Source: Nitrospirota bacterium (GTDB taxonomy: Bacteria > Nitrospirota > UBA9217). From it: 64,000 bases of DNA. The stretch covers positions 256,001 through 320,000 of the forward strand of contig CAWCKW010000003.1 in the NCBI GenBank assembly GCA_963796285.1. The letters run 5' to 3'. The number at the start of each line of letters is the position of its first letter. Position 1 is the stretch's first letter. The notes under the pieces are model-generated. The model was not told where the DNA came from and made no database searches. It was given only the letters and a program-made list of their open reading frames with translations. Below are positions 33,335-49,602 of this stretch, one piece after another. The position numbers were made by a program, and so were the translations under genes.

Positions 33335-34519
33335 CTAGCTGGTCCCCAGCTTGAAATTAAACACCCCCTTGAGATGATACTGGGGCGCGGGATCAATTGA
33401 TGAATCATTGTCAACCAGGGTAACATCAAAATCACCCGTTGCCTGGGACGCCGCTGAATCAGACGAAAAGGTGATGGTCCCCTGGCTCACTTTTTTCAGC
33501 GTGGATTTCTCCCCATTGAAGACCAGGAACGTGCCCGGGAATTTCTCGTATTGAGGGTTGTCTTCAATGGAAAACGTTTTGCCTCCGACGCTCGGCATGA
33601 CGCCATTGTCCGATTTCAGAATGTCGATCCTGATGACGGTCTTGAACGCCGGGTCCCAGGCATTTTCCGCAACATCGGCCTGAATCGACCAATAGGAGTT
33701 GTTGTTCGTTGAGTAATAGTAATTGGGCTGAATAAGCCCGTACTCGTCATAGGTGACCGTTAAATAGTTGGTATGCGCCGGGTCCTGATCGACATTCGAG
33801 GCAGTGGACGCCGTGCTGGTTCCGGTTGCAGCACTTGCCGCTGCAGTACTGGATGAGGCTTGGCCGCCACCGCTGCCGCATGCAGCCAGAAGCGCGACCA
33901 GTACTGCGGTCACGAACATGTGCTGCAGGTGGATCCCGTGCTTTATGTGGTGGGGCTCGGCATACCCCTCTTCAATGAGCACCTCGCCAAGCTTTTTCCG
34001 GGAACCTGTCTGCTTGCGGAGGGCATCATCAAGCTGATTTCGGGAGATGGTACCTGATGAGACCAGGATCTCTCCGAGCTTAAGCGGGCCGGGGACCGGT
34101 TTCGCATTACCCTGGTTCTGTTGAAAATCGAGCACGCCGTGCAGCTCTCGCTCCGTAAGCAGGCCCTGGCGAACCAGGACCTCGCCGAGCTTCTCGCCGC
34201 TTCTTTGTTGCTCGGCAATGGCATGCTCAAGCTGTTCACTCGTGATGCGTCTTGCCTGAACGAGCAGTTCGCCCAGCAGCCGGCGAACACCCGCGGCAAG
34301 CTTGACCGCGTCCTCGACGCGGTCGAGATGTTCCTGTACTGCAAGGGCCACTTTGATGTCCGCCGGATCAAGAATATTCATCCTGACCAGGACCTGACCC
34401 AGGCGTTCGTTGGTATTCTTTTGCTCCTCCAAAGCTGCCGCGATGTTCTGCTGGGGCAGAAATCCACCATCGATCAAGATCTGTCCGATGAAGCGCCTAT
34501 TGTGTTTTTGTTTCAACAT
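33335..34519 (-). CDS. Triple MshEN-like (c-di-GMP-binding) protein with internal lipobox-like segment and extracytoplasmic domain
   Basis: Six (R/K/F)(L/I)Gxx(L)..G.....L..AL..Q half-motifs, then FVTAVLVALLAAC-GSGG, an S/T/A linker and a beta-rich domain. AGGAG RBS before ATG 34519. Confidence 0.75.
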   Translation of the reverse strand: MLKQKHNRRFIGQILIDGGFLPQQNIAAALEEQKNTNERLGQVLVRMNILDPADIKVALAVQEHLDRVEDAVKLAAGVRRLLGELLVQARRITSEQLEHAIAEQQRSGEKLGEVLVRQGLLTERELHGVLDFQQNQGNAKPVPGPLKLGEILVSSGTISRNQLDDALRKQTGSRKKLGEVLIEEGYAEPHHIKHGIHLQHMFVTAVLVALLAACGSGGGQASSSTAAASAATGTSTASTASNVDQDPAHTNYLTVTYDEYGLIQPNYYYSTNNNSYWSIQADVAENAWDPAFKTVIRIDILKSDNGVMPSVGGKTFSIEDNPQYEKFPGTFLVFNGEKSTLKKVSQGTITFSSDSAASQATGDFDVTLVDNDSSIDPAPQYHLKGVFNFKLGTS

Positions 34520-34701
34520 GGGTTGCTCCTTTGCGCTGTCACCTGCCGCGCTGTGCTCCTGGTTTCGTGATTTCGAAAATAACCGTTTACGGATAGAGTC
34601 CGTTCGTCCGATACTCCTGCAGGAAGTATGACAATTTTCATCCCTGTGTCCTGTGCGTTTTCCCTCAGATTCGTATTTGCCCATACTATCCTGCTTTCTT
34701 T

Positions 34702-37700
34702 TTACTGGCCGCTGAACCACTTGACGGCATCTCGTATGCTCATCTGGTCAAACTTCATTCTCAGCTTGATGAACGGACCCGCGCTGGTGAAATCAGACTG
34801 GGAGAAGTCGCGGTCCTTAAATCCGGTGAAATTATATCCCAGGCTGATCCATATATTGCTCCCCGCGTTAAAGCCCACGGACGCCCCGGTCCCGAACGTC
34901 TCCTGGTTGATGCTGTAGGAGTGGAGCCGCATGCCGCGCAGGCCTGCATCCCACGTCTTTGTGATATCATAACGGCCCTCCAGCCCGATCAGGTCCGTGT
35001 ATCCGCGATAATCGCTATCATCGATGGTTTCCAGGACGTATTTTGCTCCATACTGCAGGGAAACCTGGGTCCTTTCGTCCGTCTTGATGTTCGCGACGAG
35101 ATTGTTCACGACGCGCTGGTTGTTGTCATAGGTCACGGTCCCGCCGTCCTGCTTATCGACGAGAAAATCGAGGCGGTCCAGAATAATGAGGCTGGTCGTG
35201 ACCGGGCGGTATGCCAGGCTCAGCCTAAGATCGTCGCTTTGCGTATGCTGCCCGGTCGAGTCAACGGTGCGGAACATTTGCAGTCCGGCCGCGAGCGCGA
35301 ATCCGCCCCCCACCTCGCCGTTCGCACCCGTGAACAGGCCATACTTGTCCTCTGAATCCGAATTGCGCTTCTCGACCCGCGCTGTCCATGACCATTTTTC
35401 CTGATGGAATCCGGCGCCGAGGGAGATTGCGGTGAAGTCCTCGCTGCTGGTTGATGTGGACGTATCATCGGTGCTCGTGGTGGACGTAGCCGTGCTGCGC
35501 AGTGTCTGGCTTCGGTCCAGGCTGCCGTCCACGCTCCACTGTTTTGTGATCTGCCAGGACTGCTTCAGGCCTGTGGTGGCGAAGAGCCGCACGCCGTTCT
35601 CGGTCGACTGCTGCTCCATGGTGGACCCGATCTGACCACCGGTCCACGGCGATGTCCTGACCCCGATCCGCGTGGTCGCGGTGTCTAACGCGGAGCCTTG
35701 CGTCCACTCCTGGTCCGCGTAGATCGTAGATTTCTCATTGAGCTTGTAGTCCGCCCCGACGGTTGTCTTTGTGGGATACTCAACGTTGTTGTTCGCTCCG
35801 ATGGACTGATCCCGATTGATCCGGATCGCGGTCTTATCGGTCACCTGGTCCTTTACGCCGGCGAAGATCTGGTCGGACCGTTGCGTCTCGCCGAAGCTCT
35901 GCGTCTCGTCGGTGCTTAGGGTGTCTATAGCCTGGCGCAGGCCCGCCGTCAGTGTATACCGGCCCACCGCGTAATTGCTCCGGACCTCGGCCATGTCGCG
36001 AACCGCGCCGGTGGACAAGTCGTTCTGCTCGAACACCTCACCGCTGACGGTCCACGGCTTGTTGATCCGGTAATTGAGGTCCGCCCCGACCTTCCGGGTT
36101 CCCGACTCGCTGGCGTTCTGCTGACCGAGTCCGAACCCGACTTGCTGTTCCCGAACGTATGCCTTCCCCTCCACTTTTTCAGAACGGTGCTGCAACTCCG
36201 CGAGATACGCGTCGCCGTTGCTCGTGACACCGTCCTGGTCCGTCTTTGTCGTGGCGGCCTCGGCCCGGAGCGTATCGTGCTCACCGAGCTTGATCTTCGC
36301 ATCGACCCCCTCGAGATTGCCCGAACCACCCACCTGGCCCTCGTGGACATGGGAGGCGCCGACCTCGAGACGGCTGTCGAGGAACCGTGCCGCGACGCGG
36401 CCGCCATAGTTGTATTTCTTGTCCGAGTCGTCAAAGGAATCATATTCCGCAACAATGAAAATTGGATTGAAATCCCCGTCACTGCTGTTCACCGGACTCT
36501 TGAAGAAAATGGTCCCGGCATCGTAGTCGATGGTATAGTCAAGTTGGTTGGTCAGCTGTTGGCTCGAAAGAATGACCTCGCTCTTGAACCGGTCCCGGGT
36601 CTCGAGTGTGATCGTATCGGAATTGAGCACAATATTCTTCCGGGACAGGTGATACAGTCCCGAGGTGCCGTCTCCCGATAACTCGTCCCGCACGTGCGCC
36701 TGGTTCGTATCCGCAAGAAAAACGGCATATTCGTAATCCTTGGTCTTCATCTCCGATTTGAACCCGGTGAAGTTCCGGCTGTACCGTGAAAGCTCGGTAA
36801 GGGAAAGGCCGGCGTTGAAATCGCCGAACAGGGCATAGAACTGGTCGCGCTCCAGCTTGACATAGATGTGCTTTGCGCTGGCTGCGTCGTTGCTCTGCAT
36901 TGTACCGTCGCCATACAACGTGTAATATTTATTTGGATCGATGGTCTGGTACAGGCTCGCCTGGTCCGTGCTGTCTGTTTTTTTGCTGTCATAGGCCAGC
37001 GTAAGCAGCCACTCGCCCTTGATCCTGCCTTTGGCATAAAAGGCCAAACGGTCCTCTTCGAAGTATTTATCATCACCACTCCCGGACGCGAAGGTCTCCA
37101 TGTTGCCCTTCACTGCATTGTATCCCACCGTGCCTTCGGCCAGGCCGACGAGGACCCAATCCCGGTCCCCCGGCTTGAGCCACGTTCGGATTTCCTGGGT
37201 CGTGCCATCGGCAACCTGGAAGCGGAGGACTGCTTCACCGGTCTGCATGGTCGGCTGGAGCTCGATGAGGGCAATGCCGTTCTCTCCCACATGATATTTC
37301 TGGCGATCGTTGGTCGACGCGGTCAAGGGGTTCTGCTGGAGGTCTTCGACCCGCTGGCGCGCAAGATACGGCGGATCCACCCTGTACTCGCCCATGACGC
37401 CCTCCCGCGCGGGATGACCTTCCTTGTCGGTCAGCAGGACGGCTATGACCGGCGCATTCTTGCCGTCCGCCGCGAGTTTTGACTGTGCGGGAACAAATTC
37501 CGCCTTGACCGGAGACCCCGAATAATGCATGACCCGCTTCACGCGGGAAGTCTCGGTTTTGTTTTCATCGTATTCCACGCCCTCGAAAAGATTGTCGCCG
37601 TCAATCAAATGGATGCCTCTCCAGAAACTGACCGCAACTCTGTTGTCTTGCCGCGCGGTCGTGTTGTCGAGATAAAACGCGTCCACTTCCTCTCCGTTCA

Positions 37701-40536
37701 GGAACAGTTTAAATGATTTCGAGGGATCGTGTTTGATCACGATATTCGTGCTCGCGATCGGGGGATGGTATCCCTCAGAAGGCCAGAGCCAGGACAAACC
37801 TATCTGCGACTTCTCCATCCAGTCCACATCGTAATCGGGCATGGTTTTGCCGTCTTTTTCCTTTGCCCTCTGGTCCGGGGCCCATTCTTCACCCTGCGCC
37901 AGGCCAGTGATCGACACGGTCTTCTTGCCGCTCGTTTCCTTGTCGTTGCGGATAGAGGTCCAGGCGGAATCCCTGCGCGTGTCGAACGTGGGATGGAGCG
38001 CGACGTCGGGTTCGCTCGTCTGACGCTTCAACTCATAGCGGACAAGGTTCGTGTCAGCCACGGGAGTCTTCACTCCTTTTTCCGCCGGAGTGTCGAAAAC
38101 CAGGAACGCCTTCGTGGACAGATTTCCTTCAACACCGTGCGCCGGCGCTGTCGCGAGTAAAGCGACGGACCCCTCCCACCCGGCGGGCCGCTCGCCCAGA
38201 TGATAGGTCAGGACGCCATCGCCGAGGTCAGGATCGGGGACCCGACCGTCAGTCAGACTGCTGCTTCCCGCCGCGTACGATACGCCGTCCGGCATCATCA
38301 CGATCAGCCGGAGGTTCCGCACCGGGACCGCTCCCACATGCAGGTTGGCCGAGTAAGCGAGGGTGTACCGGCCGTTCGCGTCCGGGAGAAGGCAATTCTC
38401 GTTCACGAATGGCACCATGGCCGCATCATCGTTATTGCCGTTCACGTACGGCTTCGCGGTGCCGGTCTGGGCCATGGCCGGGGAATTCTTCTTCTGTTCG
38501 CCGAAAGGAGTACACGTTTGGGCCGCAGCCAGGGAAGCCCCCGGCTCAACGTCAACAGGGTTAATCGACCCGGTCCGGGTCGTGACCAGAGAGGTCCGCA
38601 GTTCAAGGCCAACCTCGCCGGTCTGTTTCGCTTTCGGAGGACGGAGCGCCAGATGGAAATCGGCCCTCCACAAGGTGCCGCCTTGCAAATCCACGAACTG
38701 CGAAAAAGACCTGCCCGCGAAACGCGTGTTGTCCTCGCACTGCGCGGACTCGTATTGATCGGGTACCGTGACCGTATCAAGCTGCACCACGTGGGTCCCC
38801 GCGTTAACAGCCGCAAAGTGATACATCCCGTTCTTGTCGGTCACGACATAGGACCCTTCCTCGAGGAAGATGCGGACCCCTGCGATGCCGCGCCCGTTGT
38901 CGCCGCAGCCGTCGAGGACTCGGCCGACAATGGTCGTCTTGGTCATAAAGAAGTCCTCGGTCACCTGGACCGTGGTTGTTGCCGTATTGGATTTCACTCC
39001 AGAGGTGCTGTTCGCCACGGCCGTGTTCACTGCCTTGCCAAGGTTGGCGCCCGCGCCTACCTCCGTGACATAGCTGACATCCGCCGTTGCCGCGGCGGCG
39101 AGATCGCCGACCGTAAAAGTTAAGCTCCGGCCGTCTCCGGAGATCGCAGGATCGGTCGCGCGGACGCTGTTCAGGCGCACCGACCCTTTTCGGTACCGGA
39201 AACCAACCGGCAGCCGGTCAATAATCGTCACCCCCGCTGCTGCAGCGGATTTGTTGATGTTCTCCACCGTGAGTGCGTAGGGAACAAAGTCGCCGATTGC
39301 CGCCGAGGCCTTGCCTGCGGATTTGATCAGATAGAGCTGGGTGCTTGCCGGATCCGTGGGAATATCAATGCGGATAGCGGGCCCCGCGTTCACCACGAAC
39401 TCCTCGCTTCGCGAGCCGGGCTCGGCAATTGCGAAGGGGCCGCCCGACAGTGCCTGCAGAACGGCAGTCGCAACGTTCGAGGGAGACCGGTATCCAGAGG
39501 GCGGCAGGACATCGAGGCGATAGTGGCCCGGGCTGATGAAGGGGAAACGATAACCGCCCGGGGTCAGGGAATAGACCTTGCCGCTGCTGTCCACCGCTGT
39601 ACCGCCGGTGGTGAGGGTGGAAGGAAAGGTCGCGACACCGTCATCACCATACACGGTCGCGGGACTGCCCGTGGCGGTGTTCACGAGGGTGACGCTCGCC
39701 CCGTCGACAGGCTGGCCGGTCGCGCTGTTGAAAACGATCCCAAAGGGATCAACGAGCGCCGAGACGGAAGTCTTGTCAACGGGATCGGACGGGTCTGTAT
39801 AGGAAACAATGACGTTCGAGTCGTTCACCATGCTGAGCATGCCGTTGTTCAGCGTGACCGACTGGGACGTGGATTGAATATATCCGAGGAACACGCCGGT
39901 ATTGGGGCCCGTCTCCGTGAGGCGGAGCACCTCGGTGTCGCCTGTCTTGTCGTCGCGGATCGTTACGACAGCGGTCTCCGCGAGGGCAGGATCGTTGTTC
40001 TGGTCTTTGTCGGTCAGGCGGATGAAGACCGGTTCGCCCGTGTGATATTGGGTCGGTGAAACAAGCGGCACCGGCTGGTTGATGTCAATGGCCGCGGAAG
40101 AGCCGGCAGGAACCGGCGCGCCGAGGACAACAAAGGGCCCCGCGGTGTTTCCACTGGGACTGTACGATGTCGGTTTTACCGTGAGCTGTTGAACGCCGGT
40201 TGCGCCAGGCGCGTACTCCAGAAATTCTATGACCGCAGTCGTCCGCTGGACCATGGACGTCACTGACGCCGCTGGAGACGTTACGGTTACCGGACTGCCC
40301 GCGGATGCGGGTGTATACGTCGCGGTTGCGACATTGGTGATGATCGTGCCGGAAGGTGTGCTCGACCAGCCGACGGATGAGAACAGATGAATGAATAGGA
40401 ATGATAACATCAAAATAACTATGGGAGAAAAAACCGGGACCGCTCCGGCGAACAGGCGCACCCCGGTTGTGCCTTCACCCTCGTGCGTGAAGGTACGGTC
40501 GGTTTGCGCGCCATTTGTGCTGAAGCGGTCCCTCAT
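34702..40536 (-). CDS. Giant (1944 aa) outer-membrane protein: N-terminal donor-like strand, carboxypeptidase-regulatory/DUF11/SdrD-like domains, C-terminal beta-barrel region
   Basis: Signal segment followed by STPSGTIITNVATATY. Complete DUF11 (LIKS..VTIIDRLP..KAVNTAVA). RLAFYAKGRIKGEWLLTLAYDS..YYTLYGD. Amphipathic strands ending in GYNFTGFKDRDF..LRMKFDQ. Confidence 0.8.
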   Translation of the reverse strand: MRDRFSTNGAQTDRTFTHEGEGTTGVRLFAGAVPVFSPIVILMLSFLFIHLFSSVGWSSTPSGTIITNVATATYTPASAGSPVTVTSPAASVTSMVQRTTAVIEFLEYAPGATGVQQLTVKPTSYSPSGNTAGPFVVLGAPVPAGSSAAIDINQPVPLVSPTQYHTGEPVFIRLTDKDQNNDPALAETAVVTIRDDKTGDTEVLRLTETGPNTGVFLGYIQSTSQSVTLNNGMLSMVNDSNVIVSYTDPSDPVDKTSVSALVDPFGIVFNSATGQPVDGASVTLVNTATGSPATVYGDDGVATFPSTLTTGGTAVDSSGKVYSLTPGGYRFPFISPGHYRLDVLPPSGYRSPSNVATAVLQALSGGPFAIAEPGSRSEEFVVNAGPAIRIDIPTDPASTQLYLIKSAGKASAAIGDFVPYALTVENINKSAAAAGVTIIDRLPVGFRYRKGSVRLNSVRATDPAISGDGRSLTFTVGDLAAAATADVSYVTEVGAGANLGKAVNTAVANSTSGVKSNTATTTVQVTEDFFMTKTTIVGRVLDGCGDNGRGIAGVRIFLEEGSYVVTDKNGMYHFAAVNAGTHVVQLDTVTVPDQYESAQCEDNTRFAGRSFSQFVDLQGGTLWRADFHLALRPPKAKQTGEVGLELRTSLVTTRTGSINPVDVEPGASLAAAQTCTPFGEQKKNSPAMAQTGTAKPYVNGNNDDAAMVPFVNENCLLPDANGRYTLAYSANLHVGAVPVRNLRLIVMMPDGVSYAAGSSSLTDGRVPDPDLGDGVLTYHLGERPAGWEGSVALLATAPAHGVEGNLSTKAFLVFDTPAEKGVKTPVADTNLVRYELKRQTSEPDVALHPTFDTRRDSAWTSIRNDKETSGKKTVSITGLAQGEEWAPDQRAKEKDGKTMPDYDVDWMEKSQIGLSWLWPSEGYHPPIASTNIVIKHDPSKSFKLFLNGEEVDAFYLDNTTARQDNRVAVSFWRGIHLIDGDNLFEGVEYDENKTETSRVKRVMHYSGSPVKAEFVPAQSKLAADGKNAPVIAVLLTDKEGHPAREGVMGEYRVDPPYLARQRVEDLQQNPLTASTNDRQKYHVGENGIALIELQPTMQTGEAVLRFQVADGTTQEIRTWLKPGDRDWVLVGLAEGTVGYNAVKGNMETFASGSGDDKYFEEDRLAFYAKGRIKGEWLLTLAYDSKKTDSTDQASLYQTIDPNKYYTLYGDGTMQSNDAASAKHIYVKLERDQFYALFGDFNAGLSLTELSRYSRNFTGFKSEMKTKDYEYAVFLADTNQAHVRDELSGDGTSGLYHLSRKNIVLNSDTITLETRDRFKSEVILSSQQLTNQLDYTIDYDAGTIFFKSPVNSSDGDFNPIFIVAEYDSFDDSDKKYNYGGRVAARFLDSRLEVGASHVHEGQVGGSGNLEGVDAKIKLGEHDTLRAEAATTKTDQDGVTSNGDAYLAELQHRSEKVEGKAYVREQQVGFGLGQQNASESGTRKVGADLNYRINKPWTVSGEVFEQNDLSTGAVRDMAEVRSNYAVGRYTLTAGLRQAIDTLSTDETQSFGETQRSDQIFAGVKDQVTDKTAIRINRDQSIGANNNVEYPTKTTVGADYKLNEKSTIYADQEWTQGSALDTATTRIGVRTSPWTGGQIGSTMEQQSTENGVRLFATTGLKQSWQITKQWSVDGSLDRSQTLRSTATSTTSTDDTSTSTSSEDFTAISLGAGFHQEKWSWTARVEKRNSDSEDKYGLFTGANGEVGGGFALAAGLQMFRTVDSTGQHTQSDDLRLSLAYRPVTTSLIILDRLDFLVDKQDGGTVTYDNNQRVVNNLVANIKTDERTQVSLQYGAKYVLETIDDSDYRGYTDLIGLEGRYDITKTWDAGLRGMRLHSYSINQETFGTGASVGFNAGSNIWISLGYNFTGFKDRDFSQSDFTSAGPFIKLRMKFDQMSIRDAVKWFSGQ

Positions 40537-40549
40537 AACAATCGGTCAG

Positions 40550-40579
40550 GCCCCCTGCCCGAGCCACTTGGCAGGGGGC
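40550..40579 (-). terminator. GC-rich stem-loop between the putative major pilin and the OM protein gene
   Basis: GCCCCCTGCC-10 nt-GGCAGGGGGC perfect 10-bp stem, no U-tract. More likely an mRNA-stabilising or attenuating hairpin than a full terminator. Confidence 0.5.
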
Positions 40580-40593
40580 GTCATCTCTTCCTC

Positions 40594-41679
40594 CTACTGG
40601 ATAGTAGCCTGGTACACAATGGTCGCTGTTTGACCCGTGGCAAGAGAACTTATCGTGGCTGTCAGCGTTTGGCCGGCCCAACTGCTGGATCCGCTGCCGC
40701 CGGTAAGACAGGCCCAACCGCCACTGGCTATATTCGCCCTTGCCTGTCCCGCACATCCGGAGCCGCCGCCGGCAGTTACGCTGGTCCACGCCGCGGTAAC
40801 GGGCACTAACGTTGCCGTCAGTGCGTCGGTGACCGTAACGGCTGTTGCGGTGCTCTGGCCCGCGGGGTTATTGATCACTACGAGATACTCCATGATAGCC
40901 CCGGGTATCGCCTTCGGGGTTGACGTGCCGTTGATCGGATCGCTGTACACGACCGACGACTTGCTGACCGTCAGGTTCGTCAGGGCCGCATGATAAGCGC
41001 TCCTTGCTGAATGCTTGCCGTCTCCGGCAGGATCATCCGTACCCGCAACATCGCCCAACACCACGTCCGCGGTGCATGTTCCATATGCGCTGGTAATGGT
41101 ACTGGTATTGTTCGCCTCAGCCGTCGTCCCGTCGACTTTATAGGCCTGGGCACGCAGCGCGTAAACTGCATAGGCGCCGTTGGTCAACCCCGCCGGCATG
41201 GTCGCAATAATGGTCACGGTCGTGGAAGAACCCGCTGACACTATCGCTGTGGCGGCGGCCGATGCCGCGTAGCTTTGTGCGTTAAAAGCATCGGTCACCG
41301 TATTGTTTCCGGAGAAGACAGACGTTGTAGAACCGGATACTTCCTCGACTGCGGTCAAAGCATACGTCTGATTTGCGTTGCCGTTGTTCGTTATCGTGAA
41401 CGTCAACACCGCGCCTGATTGATTCGAAACAACCGATACGCCCGGCGAGGCATCAGTGGTCGTCACCGTGAGGTTGACCCGGTTGCCCACCACAATAGTA
41501 CTCGTATTGGAGCTGACCACCGCCTGCGCGAACCCCCCCACATTGTACGCGACAGCAGCTGTGTTGCCGATCGGGGTACAGGCCGGGGTAAACGCCGCCA
41601 TGGCTGCTTGCGGCACTGCCAGCGCTATGACCAGGCACAGAAGCAATCCGACGATTATTGGAACTTGTCTCATTTTCAT
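40594..41679 (-). CDS. Secreted DUF11 protein (putative major pilin)
   Basis: Signal peptide, then FTPACTPIGNTAAVAY. C-terminal DUF11 (LTVSKSS..KAIPGAIMEY..VTVTDAL) ends at TIVYQATIQ. AGGAGAG RBS. Confidence 0.8.
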   Translation of the reverse strand: MKMRQVPIIVGLLLCLVIALAVPQAAMAAFTPACTPIGNTAAVAYNVGGFAQAVVSSNTSTIVVGNRVNLTVTTTDASPGVSVVSNQSGAVLTFTITNNGNANQTYALTAVEEVSGSTTSVFSGNNTVTDAFNAQSYAASAAATAIVSAGSSTTVTIIATMPAGLTNGAYAVYALRAQAYKVDGTTAEANNTSTITSAYGTCTADVVLGDVAGTDDPAGDGKHSARSAYHAALTNLTVSKSSVVYSDPINGTSTPKAIPGAIMEYLVVINNPAGQSTATAVTVTDALTATLVPVTAAWTSVTAGGGSGCAGQARANIASGGWACLTGGSGSSSWAGQTLTATISSLATGQTATIVYQATIQ

Positions 41680-41924
41680 GTTGCTCTCCTTTGGTTTATA
41701 ATTCACTGTAAGCTTCCTGGATCGTTATTGTTGTCATGCCGAAAATACCGGCTCGATCGATTACTTCGCCTTTTCACACACTCGGTGATTTCGGGCTATG
41801 GCGGATTTTCTATGCACCATTGCTGTTTCATAATCCTTACCTCCTAAATTTTTTTTAAATTCAAAGCTGAGAACCTTAAATCCTTAGAAGTTGTTCAGTT
41901 TAATACATTTGCCGGAACGTTCGT

Positions 41925-42419
41925 CTATTGCACCCTGGCCCTGAAGGAAACACTGCCCTTAGCGCCTTTTTGCAAGGGTTTCTCAATGGTCCATCGTATA
42001 TGTGTGTAATCCGCCGCCGCCGCGCGCCGCTCCTTCCCGTCGGAGGACGTTACCTTCAATTTATCGGCCGCCGCGTAGGTCTTGCCCTTGTCAACGGAAA
42101 ATTCGATCCTCGTCCCATTGCCCTCGGCCGTGCCGTCCACGTAGAGCATGTGCTCGGGCACCGGATTTTTTATAACAACATCGGTTGCCGGCTTATCTCC
42201 GGCATAGGTATAATTATTGGTAAAAATGACCGTTTGTCCGGGCGCGACATTCCTAGTCGTGGCATCGATCCGTTTCACCTCCTTTTTGCCCTCAGCATTG
42301 GTCTGCGTAACTTCAACCTCGGATACCGTTTTGATATCGAGTACGCCTTTTTGCTGCGCCCACACCGCCGCCGGCGCGAGAAGCGCAGCGGTAAATACCA
42401 GATACAATACTTTTTTCAT
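41925..42419 (-). CDS. Small secreted single-DUF11 protein
   Basis: Signal peptide; VAPGQTVIF..DVVIKNPVPEHMLYVDGTA..YTHIRW..VSFRARVQ; GAGGAGG RBS. Confidence 0.8.
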   Translation of the reverse strand: MKKVLYLVFTAALLAPAAVWAQQKGVLDIKTVSEVEVTQTNAEGKKEVKRIDATTRNVAPGQTVIFTNNYTYAGDKPATDVVIKNPVPEHMLYVDGTAEGNGTRIEFSVDKGKTYAAADKLKVTSSDGKERRAAAADYTHIRWTIEKPLQKGAKGSVSFRARVQ

Positions 42420-42436
42420 AGTCCTATCCTCCTCGT

Positions 42437-43468
42437 TTATTTGATCTTCACTTCAAAAGTTATCGTCTGTATCGGCGACGAACTCGTCAGGTTCCCGAGT
42501 TTCACGGTCACCGCATTCGGCGTCGTCAATCCAACGTCCCCGGCGTCGGTGTCGGCGATATCGGTGAGGGCCGTGTTGTTCAGCCGGAGCGAATTGGCGG
42601 TATACGTCGTGTTCACCGGCAGCGGATCGCTGATCACCACGTTGTTCGCCGTGCCGCCTCCCTTTGTGCTCGCCGCAATCGTGTACCGGAGCGTCGCGCC
42701 CGGTATGGCCAGGTTTCCGCCCCATTGGTCGAGGATTGTCACGGTCTTGTTCAGGTTCACGTTCAATGCCGCAACGGATACGCCGAAGACGCCGGTTGCC
42801 GAATGTTTTCCGTCCCGTGCCCCATCGCCGACAGCGCTTCCCGCGACGTCCAAAAATACCGTGTCGATACCCGATGAATTGGGCCCCGTGGATTGCATCG
42901 AACTGTTCAAGGTGCCGGCATCGACAGCTGTTGCCACCAGGTCGTAAAGCGCTGTTTGGCCGGTTGTCAGGCCCGCAGGCGCGTCCGCCACGATCAATAC
43001 GGTGACCGACACGCCGGAGGCAAGGTTCCCGAAGGTGCTTGCGTTGCTGTACAGGGTGTCTCCCGAGTCCCAGGTGCCGCCGTTGTTATTGTCGCGAAAG
43101 ATACGAACATTGTTCATGGTCCATGTGTTCGTAGCCTTTGACACGGCCGATAATGCGAAGCGCATGGCCGTATTGCTCGTATTGGAGACGAGGAACGACA
43201 AAGCCACGTTGCTGGAGGTCGGCGCGGTATTCACGTCGGAGTTCTTGGTCACAACCACGTTGATCGCCCGGTCCACCGTGAAGGAATTCCCGGCTGTCGC
43301 GGTATGGGTCAGGCCGTCCTGGACAAAACTCACGGCGACGGTGTTCGTGATGACCGTCCCCGCAATCGTGCCCGCGGCCCCGGCCGTGCCTACCGCAAAA
43401 AGACAACAGGCAAAGCAGGTGATGATCGCCCAGTATGCCGCGTAATATGTTTTCTTGCTGTTTTGCAT
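42437..43468 (-). CDS. Secreted DUF11 protein (putative minor/adaptor pilin)
   Basis: Signal peptide, then AGTIAGTVITNTVAVSF. C-terminal DUF11 (LNKTV..AIPGATLRY..VISDPLP) ends at TITFEVKIK. Confidence 0.8.
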   Translation of the reverse strand: MQNSKKTYYAAYWAIITCFACCLFAVGTAGAAGTIAGTVITNTVAVSFVQDGLTHTATAGNSFTVDRAINVVVTKNSDVNTAPTSSNVALSFLVSNTSNTAMRFALSAVSKATNTWTMNNVRIFRDNNNGGTWDSGDTLYSNASTFGNLASGVSVTVLIVADAPAGLTTGQTALYDLVATAVDAGTLNSSMQSTGPNSSGIDTVFLDVAGSAVGDGARDGKHSATGVFGVSVAALNVNLNKTVTILDQWGGNLAIPGATLRYTIAASTKGGGTANNVVISDPLPVNTTYTANSLRLNNTALTDIADTDAGDVGLTTPNAVTVKLGNLTSSSPIQTITFEVKIK

Positions 43469-43523
43469 AGTCGTATTCGTTCGGCCATCGTCCATCGCCG
43501 GCAGGGACAATAGCGTAAGCGCC

Positions 43524-46500
43524 TTAGTTGATCTGCATCTTGAACATCACGGTAAAACTTGCACCGCCTCCGTTCAGCGTCCCGCTGGGTTTGATGCGCA
43601 CCCCTTTGACCAGCGGATCGTAACCGATGGTTGTGGGGGGATAGACATAAGGCGGACCGCCGCCGGACTGATACGAATAGGAAACCGCGTTCGCATAGGT
43701 CCACGGCGTCGTCAGGCCGCAGCTGCTGCACGAGAAGGTTACCGCGATGCCGGCGGTATCGACGTACATGGTCGTATTGGCCGGGACGACGTCCGAGACG
43801 ACAATCGAGTCCGCGTCCGCCACGCCGCCGCCATTGTTGATCACCTGAATCGTATATTGGATCTCCGCGCCGGGGATCGCCTTAGCTGACGCTGACACCC
43901 CGTTGATGGGATCGGAGATGACCGACGCTGATTTCACGACCATGATATTCGGCAGCAACTGCACGAGGAACGTGCCCACGCCGGTGTCCGATACCGTGTT
44001 TTCCGTCCCTTCCTTGGCCGTGATGCTATAGGTCCAGATTCCGCCGGGGCCGGCGCCGGGCACCGTGTACGCGTACTCGTATGTATTGGTCCCTGAGGTG
44101 GACGATACTATGTTGGTTAACGTGGCGGCGCTCACGAGCGTATTGTTGTTCGGGTCCTTGATCGTGATCGCTGCTGAGGAGATATCGAAGCTTCCGAAGG
44201 GATCGCTCACCACCGGCCGCAGATAGACCGTCTGACCGCCGGCATAGTTGCCTGATGCGGGGGTCGACGTACTGGGATACGTCGCAAGATAGGCGTTGAC
44301 GCTGTTCACGGTGATGACTGTTGAGACCGGCAGTACTGTTTTGGAGATGCTATTGCCCAAGGTAGTGTCCACCGGATACACCAGGATGCTGCGGCCTGCA
44401 GAGCTGTTGTTGGTTATCGTAAGGGTCAGGTAGTTGCCCGCGGTGCACGTGCGGGGGAGCGCGGCGCTCGTCAGGGTCACGTTCATCGTGGTTGTGGCTG
44501 CGGAGAAGAGCGTCCGCGTCGTGGTTCCGGTGAAGGCATTGGCGCCCCAGCTCGCCGAGCAGTTGAGCGTTGCCGCCGCGGTGTGATTGGTGTTATTGTT
44601 GCCCGCAAGGCTTCGCAGATAGAGCGTCAGGGGGACGTTCGCGGTGATCGTGACGTCTTTACGCAGAGGCTGGGTCTGGAGCGACCAGACAGCGGAGGCG
44701 GCGCTCGCGATCGTGATCGCGGTCGTGTTCGGCGCGACTGCAGATGACGGCGTTCTCGACATAAGGTAGGGGGAGCTTGCCCCGCCGTAGAAATAGAGCG
44801 GCTTATTGCCGATCAGCGAGACGATCGTGGCCGTGGTCGAGGACACTGCAGGCCCTGCGCCCACCGGAAGGGTGATGTTCGCTGTGTTGGCGATCGAGCC
44901 CGACATTGCCGAGACCGTGGCGTTGAAGACGATGGTTACTGAGCCACTCGCCGGGACCGTGATGCTCCGGATGTCAAGCGTTGTGGCGGTGGAAAAGTCC
45001 GCGGCGCCGGAAGGTATGCTTACCACCAGGAGGCTCGATAGATTTGTCGAAATCGTGTCAGTGACCTGCGCGCCGAAGGCCGTCACCGTCGAAGAACTGT
45101 TGATGAGCGTGATCGTGTACTGCAGGACATCGCCGGGATTCACGTTGCCGCCGCCGGGGCCGCCGCTCAGGTCCGTCCAGGTCTTCGTGGATGTCGAGAG
45201 GTTCGGCGTTTGAACCGTGGTGGTGTCGGTAACCGTATAAGCATTTACTACCGGCCCCGATGAATTGGTGAACGTGAACGTGGCCCGTGTTACGATCTGG
45301 TCGATGGTGCCGGTCGGCGCGGACGAGAGGACCGTGTCCTTCACCAGGATGCAGATCGGCGTTCCCGCAGTCGCGCTGATGGAACCCGGCAATGCAATAT
45401 CGCCCGCGTTGTAGATTCCACTGCAATCCACATCCTGATACAGAACGACCGCAGGCCAGGTCGGCTGACTTCTGCTGTTCACAGCGAAACTGACCATACC
45501 GCCCGACCCGGGCGAAAATGTATGTGCGTAATAAAGCTGGGCAAGCTGCCCGCCGCTCAGAGCGAGCGAGGACGGAGACAGGATATTGTCCGGGACATTG
45601 CTGAGTACAAGGCCGGTGATCTCGGTCCCCCGGGTAAACGTGAAGGTGACATCGCGACTGCCGAGGTTCACCCCAGAACCAACGGCGCTGCCAGGGTTGT
45701 AGTTCACCATGGAGTATCCTGCCGGAATCGTAGTCTCCGTGACCCGAGCCTTCGTGAAGTTAGTGCCCCAGGGCACGTAGAGCGAATAGGCCCCGTTAGC
45801 GTCGGTTGTGGCCGTGTCGATGGAAGTACAGCTGCTGTCGTCACAGATGCTCACGTTCATGCCGGAGAGGCCCGTCTCTCCTGCGTTCTGGACACCGTTG
45901 TTGGCGTTCGCACCCACGGCGGCCCCATCGTCCTTTAACGCAAGTCCGTCGATGCGGGTCCCGTTCAAGACACCGAAGTTCTGGTTGGTCAGATTCGATG
46001 AGCCCACCGCCACGCCGGAGAGGGTGTAATTGACCGGACTCGTGTAGATCCACTGGGTAGAGGGGAAGGACGGGTCGAAGGCAGTGTTGTTCGTGGTACT
46101 CAGGATAATCGTGTACGTGTCGTTGGTCGGCACGAGATTGAATGTGTAGGTTCCCGCGGCCTGATCGACCGATGTGATCGAAAGTGCGGAAACGAGATTG
46201 CTCGACCGGAAGAGCTTCGCATAAATGCCGGCAAGATTGGGGCTGTTCTCACCAGCGTCCCGGATGCCGCTGTGGTTGGCGTCGTTGTAGACCATGCCCG
46301 AGACAGTTGTTGAAGGACCCGACAGCGCGACCGTGGTGGTGTCGGTCACGTTGTAAGTGCCGGTCAGCGGCCCGATGGAGTTGGTGAACACGAATGTCGC
46401 CCGGGTGACAATCTGGTCCGTGATCCCGAGCGTTATGCCTGCGGGGATCGTTTCTTTGACCAGGATGCAGAGCGGCGTTCCAACGCTGGCAATAAACGAG

Positions 46501-48731
46501 GCGGGCAGCGCGATGTCGCCCGCGTCATAGGAACCGTTGCAGTTTACGTCCTTATAGAGCGTCTTCAGCCATGTCTGGGTCTGGCTGGAAACAACGAAAC
46601 TGACCGTCCCGCCGCTCCCGGGCGTAAACACATGACCAAAATAGACCAAGGAGGGGGAACTGCCTATCTGTGTTAGAGAAGAAGGCGAGAACACATTGTC
46701 TTGTATGTCGCCGAAGATGATGCCGTTGTACTTGTTGTATAGCGTGTAAGTGAACTGGATGTATTCGGGCGGTCCCATGGTGTAAGCGCCGCCGGTGCTC
46801 CCGACATTGGCGTTCACCGACAGGTAACCCGCGGGATTGGTCTCGTAAACCCTCAGCGTCTTACTTGCCGTGTTCGTAAACAGCATGAAGGTGCCGCCGC
46901 TGTCAGTGGTTGTAGTGTCATAGGTCGTGCCGCCGGTATTGTTCGTAAGCCAGACCGTCACGCCGGAGACCCCGGTCTCGGCCGCGTTCAGCACACCGTC
47001 GTTGGCATTTGATGGAGCGCCATTGTACCCGTTGTCATTGATCACCCTGCCAAAAATGCGGGAGCCATGGTACACGCCGAAGTTCTGGCTGCTCACGCTG
47101 GAGCCGCCAACGATCACATTCGAGAGCGTGAAATTGAGAGGGTTCGTGTCGACCCATTGGGCCGTAAATAGCGGCGTCGGGTCGATCAGGCTGTTGTTTG
47201 TACTCAGAATGATCGTGTAATTCTCATAGGAAGGCACGTTCACAAACGTGTAAGACCCCGCGGTTACCAGCACGGCCTGCAGGGCCGTGATCATATTGCT
47301 GGATCGGAATAGTTTCGCGTAATAATTACTTCCCGTGTTGGCCGCCGTTTCACCGCCATCAAGGGTACCGTTATGGTTGGCATCATTGAAGACAAAGCCC
47401 GAAACAGAAACAGTAGCGCCGGTCACGGTTGCAAGCACGGACGCGCTGTTGTTGCCGGAGTTGTAGTCCGTGATCACCGCAGGCACGGTCAATGAAGCCG
47501 TGTTCATGATCTGGGTGCCTGGCGTCGCGGAGCCGCTCACCGTCCCCCGTACCGTATAGGTCACCGAACCGTTAAAAGGCAGTGTAGCGGTGCCGGCGCT
47601 CGCGATGTTGATCGTGCCGGTACCCGAAGCGCTGCCGCAGACTCCGCCGCCTGAGCCGGTACAGGTCCAGGTGACGCCGGTCACGAGGGCCGGAAAAGTA
47701 TCATCGATCGGCACATTGACGGCTGTCGTATTGGCAGGACCGTAGTTCTTCGCTGTGATCGTATAATTGATCTGACCGTTCGCCGTAACCGAGGGATTCG
47801 AAACGAGTTTGGTGATCGCGAGATCAATGTCCGTCTGGAGCGGGTCTATCAGCAGGTTTCGGATCTCATGGTAGTTCGTGGAGCCGCCGGTGCTTGCCGC
47901 ATAACCGATCTTGACCGAAGCTGGTATCGGCCTGCCGGTAAAGAGTCCCGTGATCACCGGCGTCACTGGCTGGTTATAGCCGAACTGGATATAGGTATCG
48001 ACCTGCAGGTAATTTGGCGCAGGGACCGGCGTCAGTTTGATCACGACCTTGCGGTATTGGGAACTATACTGGATCGGCCGATAAAACTGGTTGTTGAAAG
48101 CGAGTTGATTTCCTGCTATGGCGCCCGATCCGCCAAGCCAGTAATAGGCACCCGAGGGATGATTGTACGGCCCGCGAACGCCCACTTCGTTCACCTGCTG
48201 ACCTGGCCCGCCAAGGCGTCCCTCGCTGGGATTCGAGAAGTTCCCATACTCGTCAATGCCGATGCCGATGTATCCGCCGGTGAGGCCTGAATGAAGCGGG
48301 GCCACGGTTTTTTTATCGTATCCGAGGGAACCGCCTGAAGCGCCGGGCGCGAAGGTCATTGCATCATAGGACCCGTCAAAAAGAAAGACGCTGTATCCGT
48401 CGGCCCCATTCCCGCCCCAGGTCGCGTAATCGAACTGGATGACCACACCCGTGGAGATATCAAAGGGAGAATCGAAGAAGGCGAACCCCGACTGATTTGT
48501 GAGAGGTTCGGTGATTCGCAGCCAGCCGTCCCCGGCGGTGTCGACGCCGGTACTTGCAGTAAGGTAGGCGCTTCCGCCGATCACCCATCCGGGAGAGGAC
48601 ATGCCGGTCATTGGCTCATTGACGATCGAGGCCCAGGCGCTGTTACTGAAAAGCCACCCCGAAACTACCAGGATAAATACGAGTATTCTCAGTGAGGAAC
48701 GAAACCCCGAACTTCTATTTGGGATTGTCAT
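43524..48731 (-). CDS. Large secreted adhesin (1735 aa): L-type lectin domain, DUF11 and SdrD-B-like repeats, C-terminal truncated DUF11
   Basis: GWLRIT..GADGYSVFLFD..GGSLGY..GIDEYGNF..GYAASTGGSTNYHEIRN (legume-like lectin); VSGxVxNDANHxG..DxGE SdrD-B motifs; very S/T-rich. Confidence 0.85.
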   Translation of the reverse strand: MTIPNRSSGFRSSLRILVFILVVSGWLFSNSAWASIVNEPMTGMSSPGWVIGGSAYLTASTGVDTAGDGWLRITEPLTNQSGFAFFDSPFDISTGVVIQFDYATWGGNGADGYSVFLFDGSYDAMTFAPGASGGSLGYDKKTVAPLHSGLTGGYIGIGIDEYGNFSNPSEGRLGGPGQQVNEVGVRGPYNHPSGAYYWLGGSGAIAGNQLAFNNQFYRPIQYSSQYRKVVIKLTPVPAPNYLQVDTYIQFGYNQPVTPVITGLFTGRPIPASVKIGYAASTGGSTNYHEIRNLLIDPLQTDIDLAITKLVSNPSVTANGQINYTITAKNYGPANTTAVNVPIDDTFPALVTGVTWTCTGSGGGVCGSASGTGTINIASAGTATLPFNGSVTYTVRGTVSGSATPGTQIMNTASLTVPAVITDYNSGNNSASVLATVTGATVSVSGFVFNDANHNGTLDGGETAANTGSNYYAKLFRSSNMITALQAVLVTAGSYTFVNVPSYENYTIILSTNNSLIDPTPLFTAQWVDTNPLNFTLSNVIVGGSSVSSQNFGVYHGSRIFGRVINDNGYNGAPSNANDGVLNAAETGVSGVTVWLTNNTGGTTYDTTTTDSGGTFMLFTNTASKTLRVYETNPAGYLSVNANVGSTGGAYTMGPPEYIQFTYTLYNKYNGIIFGDIQDNVFSPSSLTQIGSSPSLVYFGHVFTPGSGGTVSFVVSSQTQTWLKTLYKDVNCNGSYDAGDIALPASFIASVGTPLCILVKETIPAGITLGITDQIVTRATFVFTNSIGPLTGTYNVTDTTTVALSGPSTTVSGMVYNDANHSGIRDAGENSPNLAGIYAKLFRSSNLVSALSITSVDQAAGTYTFNLVPTNDTYTIILSTTNNTAFDPSFPSTQWIYTSPVNYTLSGVAVGSSNLTNQNFGVLNGTRIDGLALKDDGAAVGANANNGVQNAGETGLSGMNVSICDDSSCTSIDTATTDANGAYSLYVPWGTNFTKARVTETTIPAGYSMVNYNPGSAVGSGVNLGSRDVTFTFTRGTEITGLVLSNVPDNILSPSSLALSGGQLAQLYYAHTFSPGSGGMVSFAVNSRSQPTWPAVVLYQDVDCSGIYNAGDIALPGSISATAGTPICILVKDTVLSSAPTGTIDQIVTRATFTFTNSSGPVVNAYTVTDTTTVQTPNLSTSTKTWTDLSGGPGGGNVNPGDVLQYTITLINSSSTVTAFGAQVTDTISTNLSSLLVVSIPSGAADFSTATTLDIRSITVPASGSVTIVFNATVSAMSGSIANTANITLPVGAGPAVSSTTATIVSLIGNKPLYFYGGASSPYLMSRTPSSAVAPNTTAITIASAASAVWSLQTQPLRKDVTITANVPLTLYLRSLAGNNNTNHTAAATLNCSASWGANAFTGTTTRTLFSAATTTMNVTLTSAALPRTCTAGNYLTLTITNNSSAGRSILVYPVDTTLGNSISKTVLPVSTVITVNSVNAYLATYPSTSTPASGNYAGGQTVYLRPVVSDPFGSFDISSAAITIKDPNNNTLVSAATLTNIVSSTSGTNTYEYAYTVPGAGPGGIWTYSITAKEGTENTVSDTGVGTFLVQLLPNIMVVKSASVISDPINGVSASAKAIPGAEIQYTIQVINNGGGVADADSIVVSDVVPANTTMYVDTAGIAVTFSCSSCGLTTPWTYANAVSYSYQSGGGPPYVYPPTTIGYDPLVKGVRIKPSGTLNGGGASFTVMFKMQIN
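45215..47410 (-). repeat. Internal tandem duplication of a ~370-aa module in the adhesin
   Basis: Both units begin VSG(F/M)V(F/Y)NDANH..YAKLFRSSN and end DQIVTRATFxFTNSxGP..YxVTDTTTV. Boundaries approximate. Confidence 0.75.
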
Positions 48732-48848
48732 GTGTTCATCCCCATGGTTGAACAGTTTTTTGCATTGTTGAACAAAATTTGCATATATAACCAGGTTATG
48801 ATTTGCCCCCGTAATCCTTCAGGGCGTTATTAATATCCAATATGCTTG

Positions 48849-48876
48849 ATTATACAGAAATATAAATTATTGTCAA
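48849..48876 (-). promoter_or_regulatory. sigma70 promoter of the DUF11 operon
   Basis: Minus strand TTGACA-16 nt-TATAAT (perfect hexamers), about 120 nt upstream of the adhesin start. Confidence 0.7.
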
Positions 48877-49525
48877 TACTTTTTTTTGTTGTTTTATCGG
48901 CATTAGAATAGCCGGTCTTTCTTCAAAGCGTCGGTGCCACAATGCGAGCTTGTAAGACTCCAAGTCCTCGCTCCGGGAGCTGATTATTTTAATAATGCAG
49001 GGCTTTTCTTAGTGCTTTCGTATCATAGGTGGGGTAATTTTTTGCAGACTAACATCAAGCGGTAATGTTTAATCTAAAAAAAACAGCAGTTATGCACGCA
49101 AGGCCGCCCCGATAGATCCAGGCGAAGTCAGGCTCCGGACGTTAAGAAAAAAGAAAAGCTTGTTAATGACTTCATCCAGTTAGCGATGCCTTTTTTCGGA
49201 TCAAGCGCTTATTTATTCTGTATGATCCGACCTATGTGGACCTTCACTTGTATATCTGTGACTAAATGCTCTTTATAGGTTTAAGAATTGTGCGCTTTTG
49301 TAATACAGGCTATTCTGGTTTTTTGATCAAGACCATGAAGATAATTTTTCCTAACTTCTTTGCGATTGGCGTTTCGGTTAATATGCCATGGTATATTAAC
49401 GATTAATACATGAAATCTCCCTCAAATAATTACTGTGAAATGCGGCCGCTCATTATAGTACGGCATCAGCATGCGGAGAGGCCTTGCTCATCCTCGTTTC
49501 TACAGCCGGCCGGGCACGCAAAACA

Positions 49526-49602
49526 ACACAGGCGGTGATTTCTCACCGCCTGTGTCATCATCCTGGTCATCAACGAGGGGCAGCCGCTCAGGGCTGCCCC
49601 TC
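49526..49602 (-). terminator. Tandem hairpins / intrinsic terminator downstream of the small membrane protein pair
   Basis: ACACAGGCGGTGA/TCACCGCCTGTGT 13-bp stem followed by TGTTTT on the minus strand; second stem GAGGGGCAGCC/GGCTGCCCCTC. Confidence 0.65.

Follow-up and report, generated by a model that had tools for sequence, protein, structure and literature searches.

How could a bacterium with two membranes build a surface fibre from a few secreted proteins when the operon that encodes them holds no chaperone, usher, sortase, or type IV pilus gene? This question is raised by five open reading frames (ORFs), designated A, B, C, D, and E, which lie head to tail on the minus strand at positions 34702-48731 of a 64,000-nucleotide stretch of DNA from a Nitrospirota bacterium (GenBank assembly GCA_963796285.1, contig CAWCKW010000003.1, positions 256,001 to 320,000), referred to here as the window. 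A sequence-only reading of the window had proposed that the encoded proteins, which carry DUF11 domains, polymerise by donating a strand from one subunit to the next and may then become covalently linked, and the five ORFs and the terminal motifs that it quoted were all confirmed in the sequence. DUF11 was renamed CLIPPER in 2025, and crystallography (structure 9IFR) has shown the domain to be CnaA-like, with an intramolecular isopeptide bond between Lys and Asn and an Asp as catalyst (PMC12617251). In the present analysis, we assign a probability of roughly 70% to the reading that the operon encodes a self-contained surface fibre of diderm bacteria, which depends on Sec export only, has split DUF11/CLIPPER immunoglobulin-like (Ig) domains as its joints, most of them probably locked, and is anchored by E.

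Results

Truncated C-termini and donor hairpins

To delimit the domains, we used a hidden Markov model (HMM) of the complete domain, with 140 positions, grown from residues 297-436 of A. Complete internal domains reached positions 123-140 of this model. Among the C-terminal domains of pilins from related loci, 13 of 14 ended at positions 100-108, not more than about 20 residues from the end of the protein, and the 14th gave a partial match. By hhalign, the C-terminal domain of B was aligned to the complete DUF11 domain of E, and B ended where E enters the strand that carries the Asn. These end positions and this alignment bear out the claim that four of the proteins end before the last DUF11 element; the chains of A, B, C, and D stop directly past strand G of a DUF11 domain and would thus present an acceptor groove.

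The missing element had been claimed to stand at the N-termini of B, D, and E. It was indeed recognised there by profile, as a hairpin of two strands and not as the single strand that had been described; in the AlphaFold2 (AF2) model of mature B, the two strands span residues 8-19 and 22-33. An HMM of the hairpin, built from the B family, scored above the best control (6.9 bits among reversed or shuffled sequences) at the N-termini of 50 of 51 pilins, the ORF of the 51st being cut, and of 19 of 26 E proteins, and it did so at none of the N-termini of 17 adhesins and 32 C proteins. When the pilin N-termini were compared with the complete-domain HMM, they fell on the Asn strand with their Asn aligned and scored as high as 11.7 bits; among matches starting at position 85 or later, no reversed or shuffled sequence exceeded 4.5 bits. 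By these profile comparisons, the complementary termini are judged to be homologous to the last strands of one complete DUF11 domain. The proposed distribution of acceptors and donors held for A (acceptor only), B and D (both), and E (donor only), whereas C falls outside the scheme of tip, shaft, and base. The positions of the genes and elements are collected in Table 1.

Table 1. Genes and elements of the operon, with their positions in the window.
Feature	Position	Strand	Remarks
A, adhesin, 1735 aa	43524..48731	-	ORF; signal peptide, DUF11 and SdrD_B repeats, last DUF11 domain without the final hairpin; acceptor only
B, pilin, 357 aa	42437..43510	-	signal peptide, N-terminal hairpin, middle Ig-like domain, truncated DUF11 domain; donor and acceptor
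C, 164 aa	41925..42419	-	single truncated DUF11 domain, without donor hairpin and without catalytic Asp
D, pilin, 370 aa, universal type	40594..41706	-	donor and acceptor; Lys and Asp present in the C-terminal domain
E, 1944 aa	34702..40536	-	signal peptide, donor hairpin, Ig-like domains including one complete DUF11 domain, C-terminal giant barrel (predicted); donor only
Complete internal DUF11 domain of A, residues 297-436	47424..47843	-	Lys, Asp, and Asn strand; seed of the HMM
C-terminal truncated DUF11 domain of A, 149 aa, acceptor groove	43527..43973	-	Lys14, Asp61
Donor hairpin of B, residues 46-81 (mature 1-36), Asn56	43268..43375	-	hairpin HMM 74.1 bits
Donor hairpin of D, residues 38-82, with Asn	41461..41595	-	hairpin HMM 32.5 bits at 40-82
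Donor hairpin of E, residues 59-95, with Asn	40252..40362	-	hairpin HMM 16.4 bits (best control 6.9)
Complete internal DUF11 domain of E, residues 398-528	38953..39345	-	own Asn strand kept; Pfam, profile alignment, hhalign
Predicted barrel module of E, residues 1124-1944, 821 aa	34705..37167	-	small beta domain inserted at about model residues 165-225
Candidate sigma-70-type promoter, TTGACA-16 nt-TATAAT	48849..48876	-	about 120 nt upstream of A; consensus match only

One could suppose that the five genes are unrelated neighbours, that is, ordinary DUF11 fibrillar adhesins beside an outer-membrane protein, whose termini are alike by the chance resemblance of strands rich in Thr, Val, and Asn. 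The weakness of the single hairpin matches to the complete-domain HMM and the abundance of DUF11 proteins (9290 representatives at E <=0.001) would agree with this explanation. However, the hairpin HMM was specific to its class, matching 50 of 51 pilins but none of the 49 A and C proteins, the gene order and the termini recurred in 34 loci across phyla, and the controls of the complex model described below scored 0.00; we therefore disfavour it as very improbable.

Lys, Asp, and Asn in grooves and hairpins

In 22 complete DUF11 domains from these operons, the Asp and the Asn were invariant (22/22), and the profile made from their alignment matched 9IFR with an E value of 2.1e-7; its columns for Lys, Asp, and Asn came to lie on residues 10, 44, and 101 of the chain. 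This profile was needed to reach 9IFR, as a phmmer search of the PDB with the single complete DUF11 domain of A gave a chance match alone (E 0.35). A constant offset puts the three columns at 715, 749, and 806 of 9IFR, one off for the Asp from the reported triad K715, D748, and N806 (PMC12617251), and by this alignment the donor Asn is taken to be homologous to the bonded Asn of 9IFR. The Lys, Asp, and Asn are found within a single domain in the complete internal copies but not in the C-terminal copies of A, B, and D, and that of C also lacks the Asp.

As regards the acceptors, K14, D21, and D61 were invariant in the C-terminal domains of adhesins (15/15), and so were K255, D261, and D295 in the B family (112/112). 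The latter set consists of window B and the 111 of the 120 matches listed that are at least 320 residues long, the relatives amounting to 184 in total. Among the C-terminal domains of pilins in the loci, the Asp was present in 52 of 52, and the Lys position was occupied by Lys in 40 and by Glu in 2 and lay outside the cut domain in 10. The Glu belongs to the first pilin of two Gallionellaceae metagenome-assembled genomes (MAGs), L020 (2399-3838) and L021 (7737-9188), which is longer than usual (479-483 aa). In C proteins, the catalytic position was Asn in 27 of 32 and Ala in 5 of 32 and never Asp, and the Lys varied, being present in window C. Thus, the statement that the acceptors keep their Lys and Asp stands for the A and B families and for D, which has both, and fails for C, which has the Lys here but in no case the Asp.

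As regards the donors, which had been said to supply the Asn, the claim was sustained for E, with Asn in all 24 N-termini that reach this column in the genome loci, and for every pilin at the D position. Over all pilins of the loci, the Asn was present in 46 of 50; the four exceptions carry Ser (L004, L005, L007, and L012) and are all first-position pilins of Nitrospirota, the adhesins of which keep the Lys and Asp. For B-type donors the claim was sustained only in part, as 72 of the 112 B-family members have the Asn and the others have Ser (23), Cys (7), Thr (5), or another residue (5). Either the joints with Ser, Cys, or Thr donors are non-covalent or the order of partners differs from the order of genes.

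These exceptions bear on the possibility of a non-covalent donor-strand fibre, in which the hairpins would be inserted in trans without a bond and the Lys and Asp would serve for folding or as an internal salt bridge. In addition to the 40 Asn-less B-type donors among 112, the lack of the Asp in all 32 C proteins speaks for it, as do the reports that some DUF11 domains lack the bond (PMC12617251) and that chaperone-usher pili are stable without covalent links (PMC13721041). It is less easily reconciled with a Lys and Asp that are invariant in all adhesin acceptors and nearly all pilin acceptors, with an Asn that is never missing from the 24 E donors and the D-position pilins, and with the alignment of the three columns to the bonded triad of 9IFR, so that we regard it as rather unlikely, although the most serious of the alternatives. 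For a covalent Lys-Asn lock at most of the joints formed by D and E, we see roughly even chances.

Another feature of the D-position pilins of Nitrospirota, Desulfuromonadales, and Thermodesulfobacteriota (window D and L007-L010) is a conserved Cys 2-4 residues before the donor strand. Two further Cys were present in the C-terminal domain of window D, L007, and L010, which were those inspected, and none in B. If unpaired, the N-terminal Cys could form a disulfide between subunits.

Complex model and natural fusions

For one joint, that between A and B, we predicted the complex with ESMFold2, using the last domain of A (149 aa, alignment of 15) and full-length mature B (312 aa, alignment of 30). 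The prediction was set as a contest, in which the B hairpin was free to take either its own groove or that of A. As a result, the interface score ipSAE was 0.86, 0.86, and 0.88 in the three runs, compared with 0.00 for the best of three controls; among reference pairs, 58 of 80 solved complexes and 2 of 110 mismatched ones pass the mark applied to this score, counts that hold only roughly here, since custom alignments were used. The runs had at least 98% of their contacts in common, and the predicted local distance difference test (pLDDT) score of the partner was at least 88. On the B side, the interface consisted of residues 1-3, 7, 9-21, 24, 26-30, and 32-37, which belong to the hairpin and include Asn11, together with residues 68, 162-175, and 187 of the middle domain; on the A side, it consisted of residues 10-16 (with Lys14), 21, 28-34, 56-67 (with Asp61), and 146-149. 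The tightest contacts were those of A 57-61 with B 13-17, and K14 and D61 of A and N11 of mature B are thus placed in one modelled interface. The prediction that a pilin N-terminus would complete the C-terminal domain of the adhesin is therefore what the model with full-length B returned, the hairpin entering the A groove. The model depicts insertion in trans with end-to-end stacking of the subunits and supports binding.

Natural fusions were also found. P0145 (696 aa) consists of two pilin modules in one chain, and positions 3-113 of the complete-domain HMM span its residues 253-384 across the junction, where module 1 ends and, after a loop of 6 residues, the hairpin of module 2 begins; the last domain of the protein stops at HMM position 95, at the C-terminus. 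In P0253 (1335 aa), the hairpin HMM matched residues 1031-1070 directly upstream of a C-terminal pilin module and, as judged by eye, after an adhesin-like C-terminal domain. A search for longer B relatives as further fusions gave none at 1e-20, which is weak evidence.

A different explanation is that B and D are circularly permuted monomers, in which the hairpin completes the C-terminal domain of its own chain, and that the proteins act separately on the surface or in the periplasm and form no fibre. The AF2 monomer of B (pLDDT 89.6, predicted template modelling score (pTM) 0.69) shows its hairpin with fair confidence, pLDDT 80-88; by reasoning on strand directions alone, the middle and C-terminal domains might lie side by side; and discontinuous CnaA-like domains do occur in pilins of Gram-positive bacteria (PMC12617251). 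Nevertheless, A has a groove without a hairpin and E has a hairpin without an open groove, so that at least these two need partners in trans. Furthermore, the model put the B hairpin into A even though its own groove was available, the hairpin in P0145 follows the preceding module after a loop of 6 residues, just as in a complete domain, and the pTM of the B monomer does not suggest a compact closed form. We consider permuted monomers improbable. When the pilin model was used as a query, Foldseek returned generic tandem Ig legs (integrin alpha, query TM-score (TMq) <=0.50) and, far down, the pilin complexes of CfaB and CsuA/B.

Taken together, the conserved termini, their homology, the A-B model, and the P0145 fusion uphold strand donation between chains, on computational grounds, and the completion of a domain by a strand supplied in trans is quite likely to be the principle by which the subunits are joined.

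Conservation and distribution

A scan of one genome per species yielded 34 loci, which are distributed among Nitrospirota, Thermodesulfobacteriota, Desulfuromonadales, Micropepsaceae, Sphingomonadales/Erythrobacteraceae, Gallionellaceae, Burkholderiales, and Lysobacter/Novilysobacter, with further loci in one Bacteriovoracaceae MAG and one MAG labelled Flavobacteriaceae. At least six bacterial groups are thus represented, among them Nitrospirota and the Alpha-, Beta-, and Gammaproteobacteria. E was accompanied by at least one pilin in all 34, C was detected at 1e-8 in 30, the remaining loci being truncated at contig ends or having a weaker C match, and an adhesin was present in 17. C always lies immediately upstream of the last pilin, and a pilin at the D position is present in every locus. 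The gene orders include A-B-C-D-E, pilin-C-pilin-E, the minimal C-pilin-E (L013-L019), and C-pilin-E-A in Lysobacter. Conservation of both the termini and the gene order, which had been named as a check on the proposal, was thus found across phyla, and no other gene of the window recurred across the 34 loci beyond close relatives.

The barrel module of E was detected at 1e-20 in 38 of 201 genomes sampled from the phylum (28 of the 147 of good quality), including 27 of 44 in the family of the window. A profile search of 1.84 billion representatives gave 952 matches at 1e-30, many of which were proteins of 320-400 aa matched end to end and the rest giant DUF11 repeat proteins. RefSeq names of the proteins in cultured strains are "DUF11 domain-containing protein," "hypothetical protein," and "CshA/CshB family fibrillar adhesin-related protein," and a search of the ESM Atlas with C gave clusters named "DUF11" and "hypothetical" only. 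In L011 (CAVTAJ010000023.1), L003, and L017, the adhesin, pilin, or E genes are split into several overlapping ORFs, which may be due to frameshifts or errors of long-read assembly; L011 has the same flanking genes as the window and is its closest relative in the locus set.

The range of gene orders is also relevant to the possibility of a split adhesin, in which A, B, D, and E would each be used once and in a fixed order, giving one stalk of defined length per barrel. The hairpins of B, D, and E differ within one operon and could enforce such an order, the N-terminal half of E resembles a stalk of like domains, and the P0145 fusion joins exactly two modules. On the other hand, self-polymerisation needs no more than a hairpin and a groove from one family, and both are found in B as well as in D; only one pilin stands between C and E in the minimal operons, and the groove residues of B are invariant whatever its own donor carries. 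We hold a split adhesin to be unlikely. As for the fibre proposed here, a true homopolymeric pilin shaft is an evenly balanced question in our judgement, and the copy numbers of the pilins in it are something that we infer.

The barrel module of E

The last 821 residues of E were conserved over their full length in all complete loci, with 31-81% identity, and gave no match to a Pfam or NCBIfam family. AF2 modelled this module with about 40 long antiparallel strands and with the small inserted beta domain after about the eighth strand (pLDDT 76.9, pTM 0.58). By Foldseek, it showed weak likeness to LptD, Deinococcus SlpA, the type 9 translocon SprA, and FimD/PapC, with TMq <=0.27 throughout and 0.18-0.23 for FimD/PapC. 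The SprA barrel has 36 strands. With about 36-40 strands, the modelled E barrel would be among the largest single-chain barrels, if real, and its size could allow folded Ig domains to pass. In its inserted domain, it has a part reminiscent of the usher plug (PMC13721041). Export of the subunits through the E barrel is conceivable, although we rate it somewhat below an even chance, and the N-terminal half of E would in that case thread outward. In an hhalign comparison of the pilin profile with the N-terminal 502 residues of E, the DUF11 part alone was aligned (probability 23%, E 8.7e-4), and we do not take this half of E to be an entire pilin module.

In four genomes of the phylum (G087, G095, G143, and G155), there are frames of 4291-4655 aa, and further ones of about 1700 aa, that match no more than the first 310 or so positions of the barrel module, with E values of 1e-36 to 1e-48. 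The part of the barrel that bears the inserted domain may be shared with other giant outer-membrane proteins, as judged from these matches.

The operon and its surroundings

The intergenic gaps of the operon are, in order, 13, 17, 218, and 57 nt, and the putative promoter matches the consensus at 12 of 12 positions, the top of 10 such sites within 33000-50000. Each of the five proteins starts with an ordinary signal peptide of the Ala-X-Ala type, in which Ala, Gln, or Ser comes after the small-X-small site, and Cys at +1 was never found in them or in their relatives of the loci. The Pfam model PF01345 gave 69.5 bits for A, 35.1 for E, 25.5 for C, and 19.4 for B, which is below its cut-off of 24.6; B was recognised by TIGR01451 with 32.9 bits (cut-off 24). 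D had no Pfam or NCBIfam match, and its relatives in the loci match our locally built DUF11 HMM. All five are thus Sec-secreted DUF11/CLIPPER proteins. Pfam also indicated SdrD_B repeats in A (68.7 bits) and a CarboxypepD_reg domain in E. The N-terminal 266 residues of A matched the legume-lectin model Lectin_L-type_dom at E 4e-5 and 24 bits, far under its cut-off of 78.3, a weak match by which this domain may be called lectin-like.

The genome (3.58 Mb, 13 contigs, 96% complete) holds one copy of the system. Its neighbours at 29555-31810 (-), 31946-32821 (+), and 50622-52732 (+) are ordinary and unrelated, comprising a topoisomerase IV/gyrase A-type subunit and CpXC, TPR, and FecR-domain proteins. 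An ORF of 461 aa at 33335-34720 (-) overlaps the end of E by 19 nt and encodes three similar repeats of about 60 residues, followed by a hydrophobic segment and a lipobox-like stretch containing a Cys, with a weak Pfam match to DUF4388 (26.3 bits). It was considered as a sixth component and rejected, as only 5 of the 34 loci, all from close relatives within Nitrospirota, have it after E. A regulator or an accessory protein particular to this lineage is what it may encode.

Discussion

Proposed assembly

We propose that A to E would cross the inner membrane through Sec and that, at each joint, the mature N-terminal hairpin of the next subunit would provide the last two strands for the groove of the previous one. 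The hairpin would run straight into the first domain of its own subunit, which would give a head-to-tail line of subunits, with A, having a groove only and a lectin-like head, at the distal end, B and D, having both a hairpin and a groove, in the stalk, and E, having a hairpin only, at the end of the chain, its giant C-terminal barrel tying the fibre to the outer membrane. The Lys and Asp of the groove and the Asn of the hairpin would then form an autocatalytic Lys-Asn bond between the chains, probably at most joints, where the Asn is present.

If chaperone-usher pili are taken as the analogy, the fibre might be started by a protein with a groove only, which would be A or, where there is no adhesin, C; new pilins would join at the base by inserting their hairpin into the last groove, until the hairpin of E stopped growth and tethered the fibre. 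E would in this way unite in one protein the roles of a PapH-like terminator and of the pore. The termini agree just as well with a fibre that grows outwards from the base and has A and C as its distal caps, and the direction of growth is what we infer. C, in which the Asp is missing and often the Lys too, would hold a hairpin but not trap it. C might thus bind hairpins reversibly without being able to lock them and act as a cap, an initiator, or a periplasmic holder, a kind of inverse chaperone. That the whole amounts to a novel class of diderm pilus, with split and self-locking CLIPPER joints, a protein E that both exports and anchors, and the dead acceptor C as inverse chaperone, is put forward tentatively, as the less probable form of the proposal.

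Several points weigh against this reading of the locus. Its whole support is computational. The pass of the A-B model may reflect the rebuilding of an intact DUF11/Cna-type fold or the recall of known donor-strand complexes, and the confidence of the hairpin in the B monomer leaves room for packing in cis in the free subunit. P0145 and P0253 are singletons from assembled sequencing runs, a thin basis, and the barrel model is of middling confidence. As to the lock, two pilins have Glu in place of the acceptor Lys, and, with the Asn absent from 40 of the 112 B-family donors and replaced by Ser in 4 of the 50 pilins, it cannot be universal; given these donors, the assumed order of partners may also be wrong.

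Comparison with known fibres

Donor-strand fibres are known from chaperone-usher pili, type V pili, TasA, archaeal threads, and tat-fimbriae. In chaperone-usher pili, the fibre is ended by PapH, a terminator subunit without a usable groove. These pili would resemble the present system in that incomplete Ig folds are made whole by the next subunit's N-terminal extension, the tip adhesin has a groove only, and a barrel forms the base (PMC13721041). Here, completion of the previous Ig fold by an N-terminal extension is modelled for A-B and fits the termini, in another fold family; the donor is a two-strand DUF11 hairpin and not a single strand, and the acceptor keeps the isopeptide Lys and Asp. 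Furthermore, the terminator and the barrel are one polypeptide, with about 36-40 modelled strands compared with 24 in the usher (PMC13721041). No Pfam or NCBIfam match to a PapD-like chaperone or a PapC/FimD usher was obtained in the five proteins and seven flanking ORFs, sortase and type IV pilus genes were not found in the operon or its flanks, and no chaperone, usher, or sortase is conserved beside the gene set across the 34 loci, so that the statement of the sequence-only reading that the operon holds none of these proved correct.

For the threads of Sulfolobus (PMC9715654) and for BsaA of Clostridium perfringens (10.1101/2024.11.04.621531), it has been proposed that the exchange of strands is followed by an isopeptide lock. 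The threads of Sulfolobus acidocaldarius (Saci_0406) combine donor-strand complementation with isopeptide links between subunits and need no sortase, but they belong to a single-membrane archaeon, and the link runs to Asn57 of subunit n+2 from the N-terminal amine of Asp24, in place of a Lys-Asn bond with a catalytic acid (PMC9715654); their subunit has no Pfam domain, and they have no barrel. In the TasA-like BsaA, the N-terminal segment enters the sheet of its neighbour and an inter-chain isopeptide bond follows, an "exchange and lock" in which mutants of the bond residues lose their oligomers; it differs in being Gram-positive, in its TasA/camelysin fold and SipW peptidase, and in a secretion that is tied to type IV pili (10.1101/2024.11.04.621531). 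The twelve proteins scanned gave no match to the TasA/camelysin family or to a SipW-type peptidase.

Sortase pili (SpaA and RrgB) and the SpyTag/SpyCatcher pair have in common with the present proteins the Cna-type Ig domains and Lys-Asn/Asp bonds. In sortase pili, it is the enzyme that joins one subunit to the next, through a bond to the C-terminal Thr. The SpyTag/SpyCatcher pair is man-made and of the CnaB type. The C-termini in this operon end directly past strand G, and no LPXTG-type motif or hydrophobic tail was found there; a sortase was not found among the neighbours, either in the flanking ORFs or in the 34 loci. The engineered pair demonstrates that a split Cna-type domain reassembles and ligates unaided (PMC6539128). 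CLIPPER itself forms the stalks of Gram-negative fibrillar adhesins (PMC12617251) and belongs to the same family, with aligned triad columns; its triad in 9IFR lies within one chain, whereas here the terminal copies are split and the Asn comes from another protein.

Type V pili (FimA and Mfa1) are strand-exchange fibres with tip, adapter, shaft, and anchor subunits in one operon. Type V pilins are lipoproteins with Cys at +1, are trimmed by a protease, and donate a C-terminal strand. The present proteins do not have this lipoprotein signal. The haloarchaeal tat-fimbriae are likewise strand-exchange fibres with tip, adapter, shaft, and anchor encoded in one operon, but they use the Tat pathway and a membrane anchor (PMC11821415). 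On the profile comparisons made, the parts of the present system are unrelated to known pilus machineries, and the defining components of the families compared were not found here. The literature searched, subscription journals aside, contained no account of this operon or of a DUF11 joint split between proteins.

Significance

The system is present in cultured strains of Lysobacter/Novilysobacter and Erythrobacteraceae, such as Novilysobacter antarcticus GW1-59, Lysobacter sp. A03, and Qipengyuania thermophila CFH 74456, and is, therefore, directly testable. The barrel module would matter to studies of outer-membrane biogenesis and of how folded proteins are exported, and the hairpin and groove pairs of many lineages could give orthogonal self-ligating tags. 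If the reading is true, bacteria with two membranes build adhesive fibres from 3-5 Sec-exported proteins with no component common to known pilus classes. It would also be the first case found of a natural Cna-type domain that is split between proteins, in which completion of the fold and ligation join the subunits, and would thus represent a natural counterpart of the split-domain ligation that protein engineers have made by hand.

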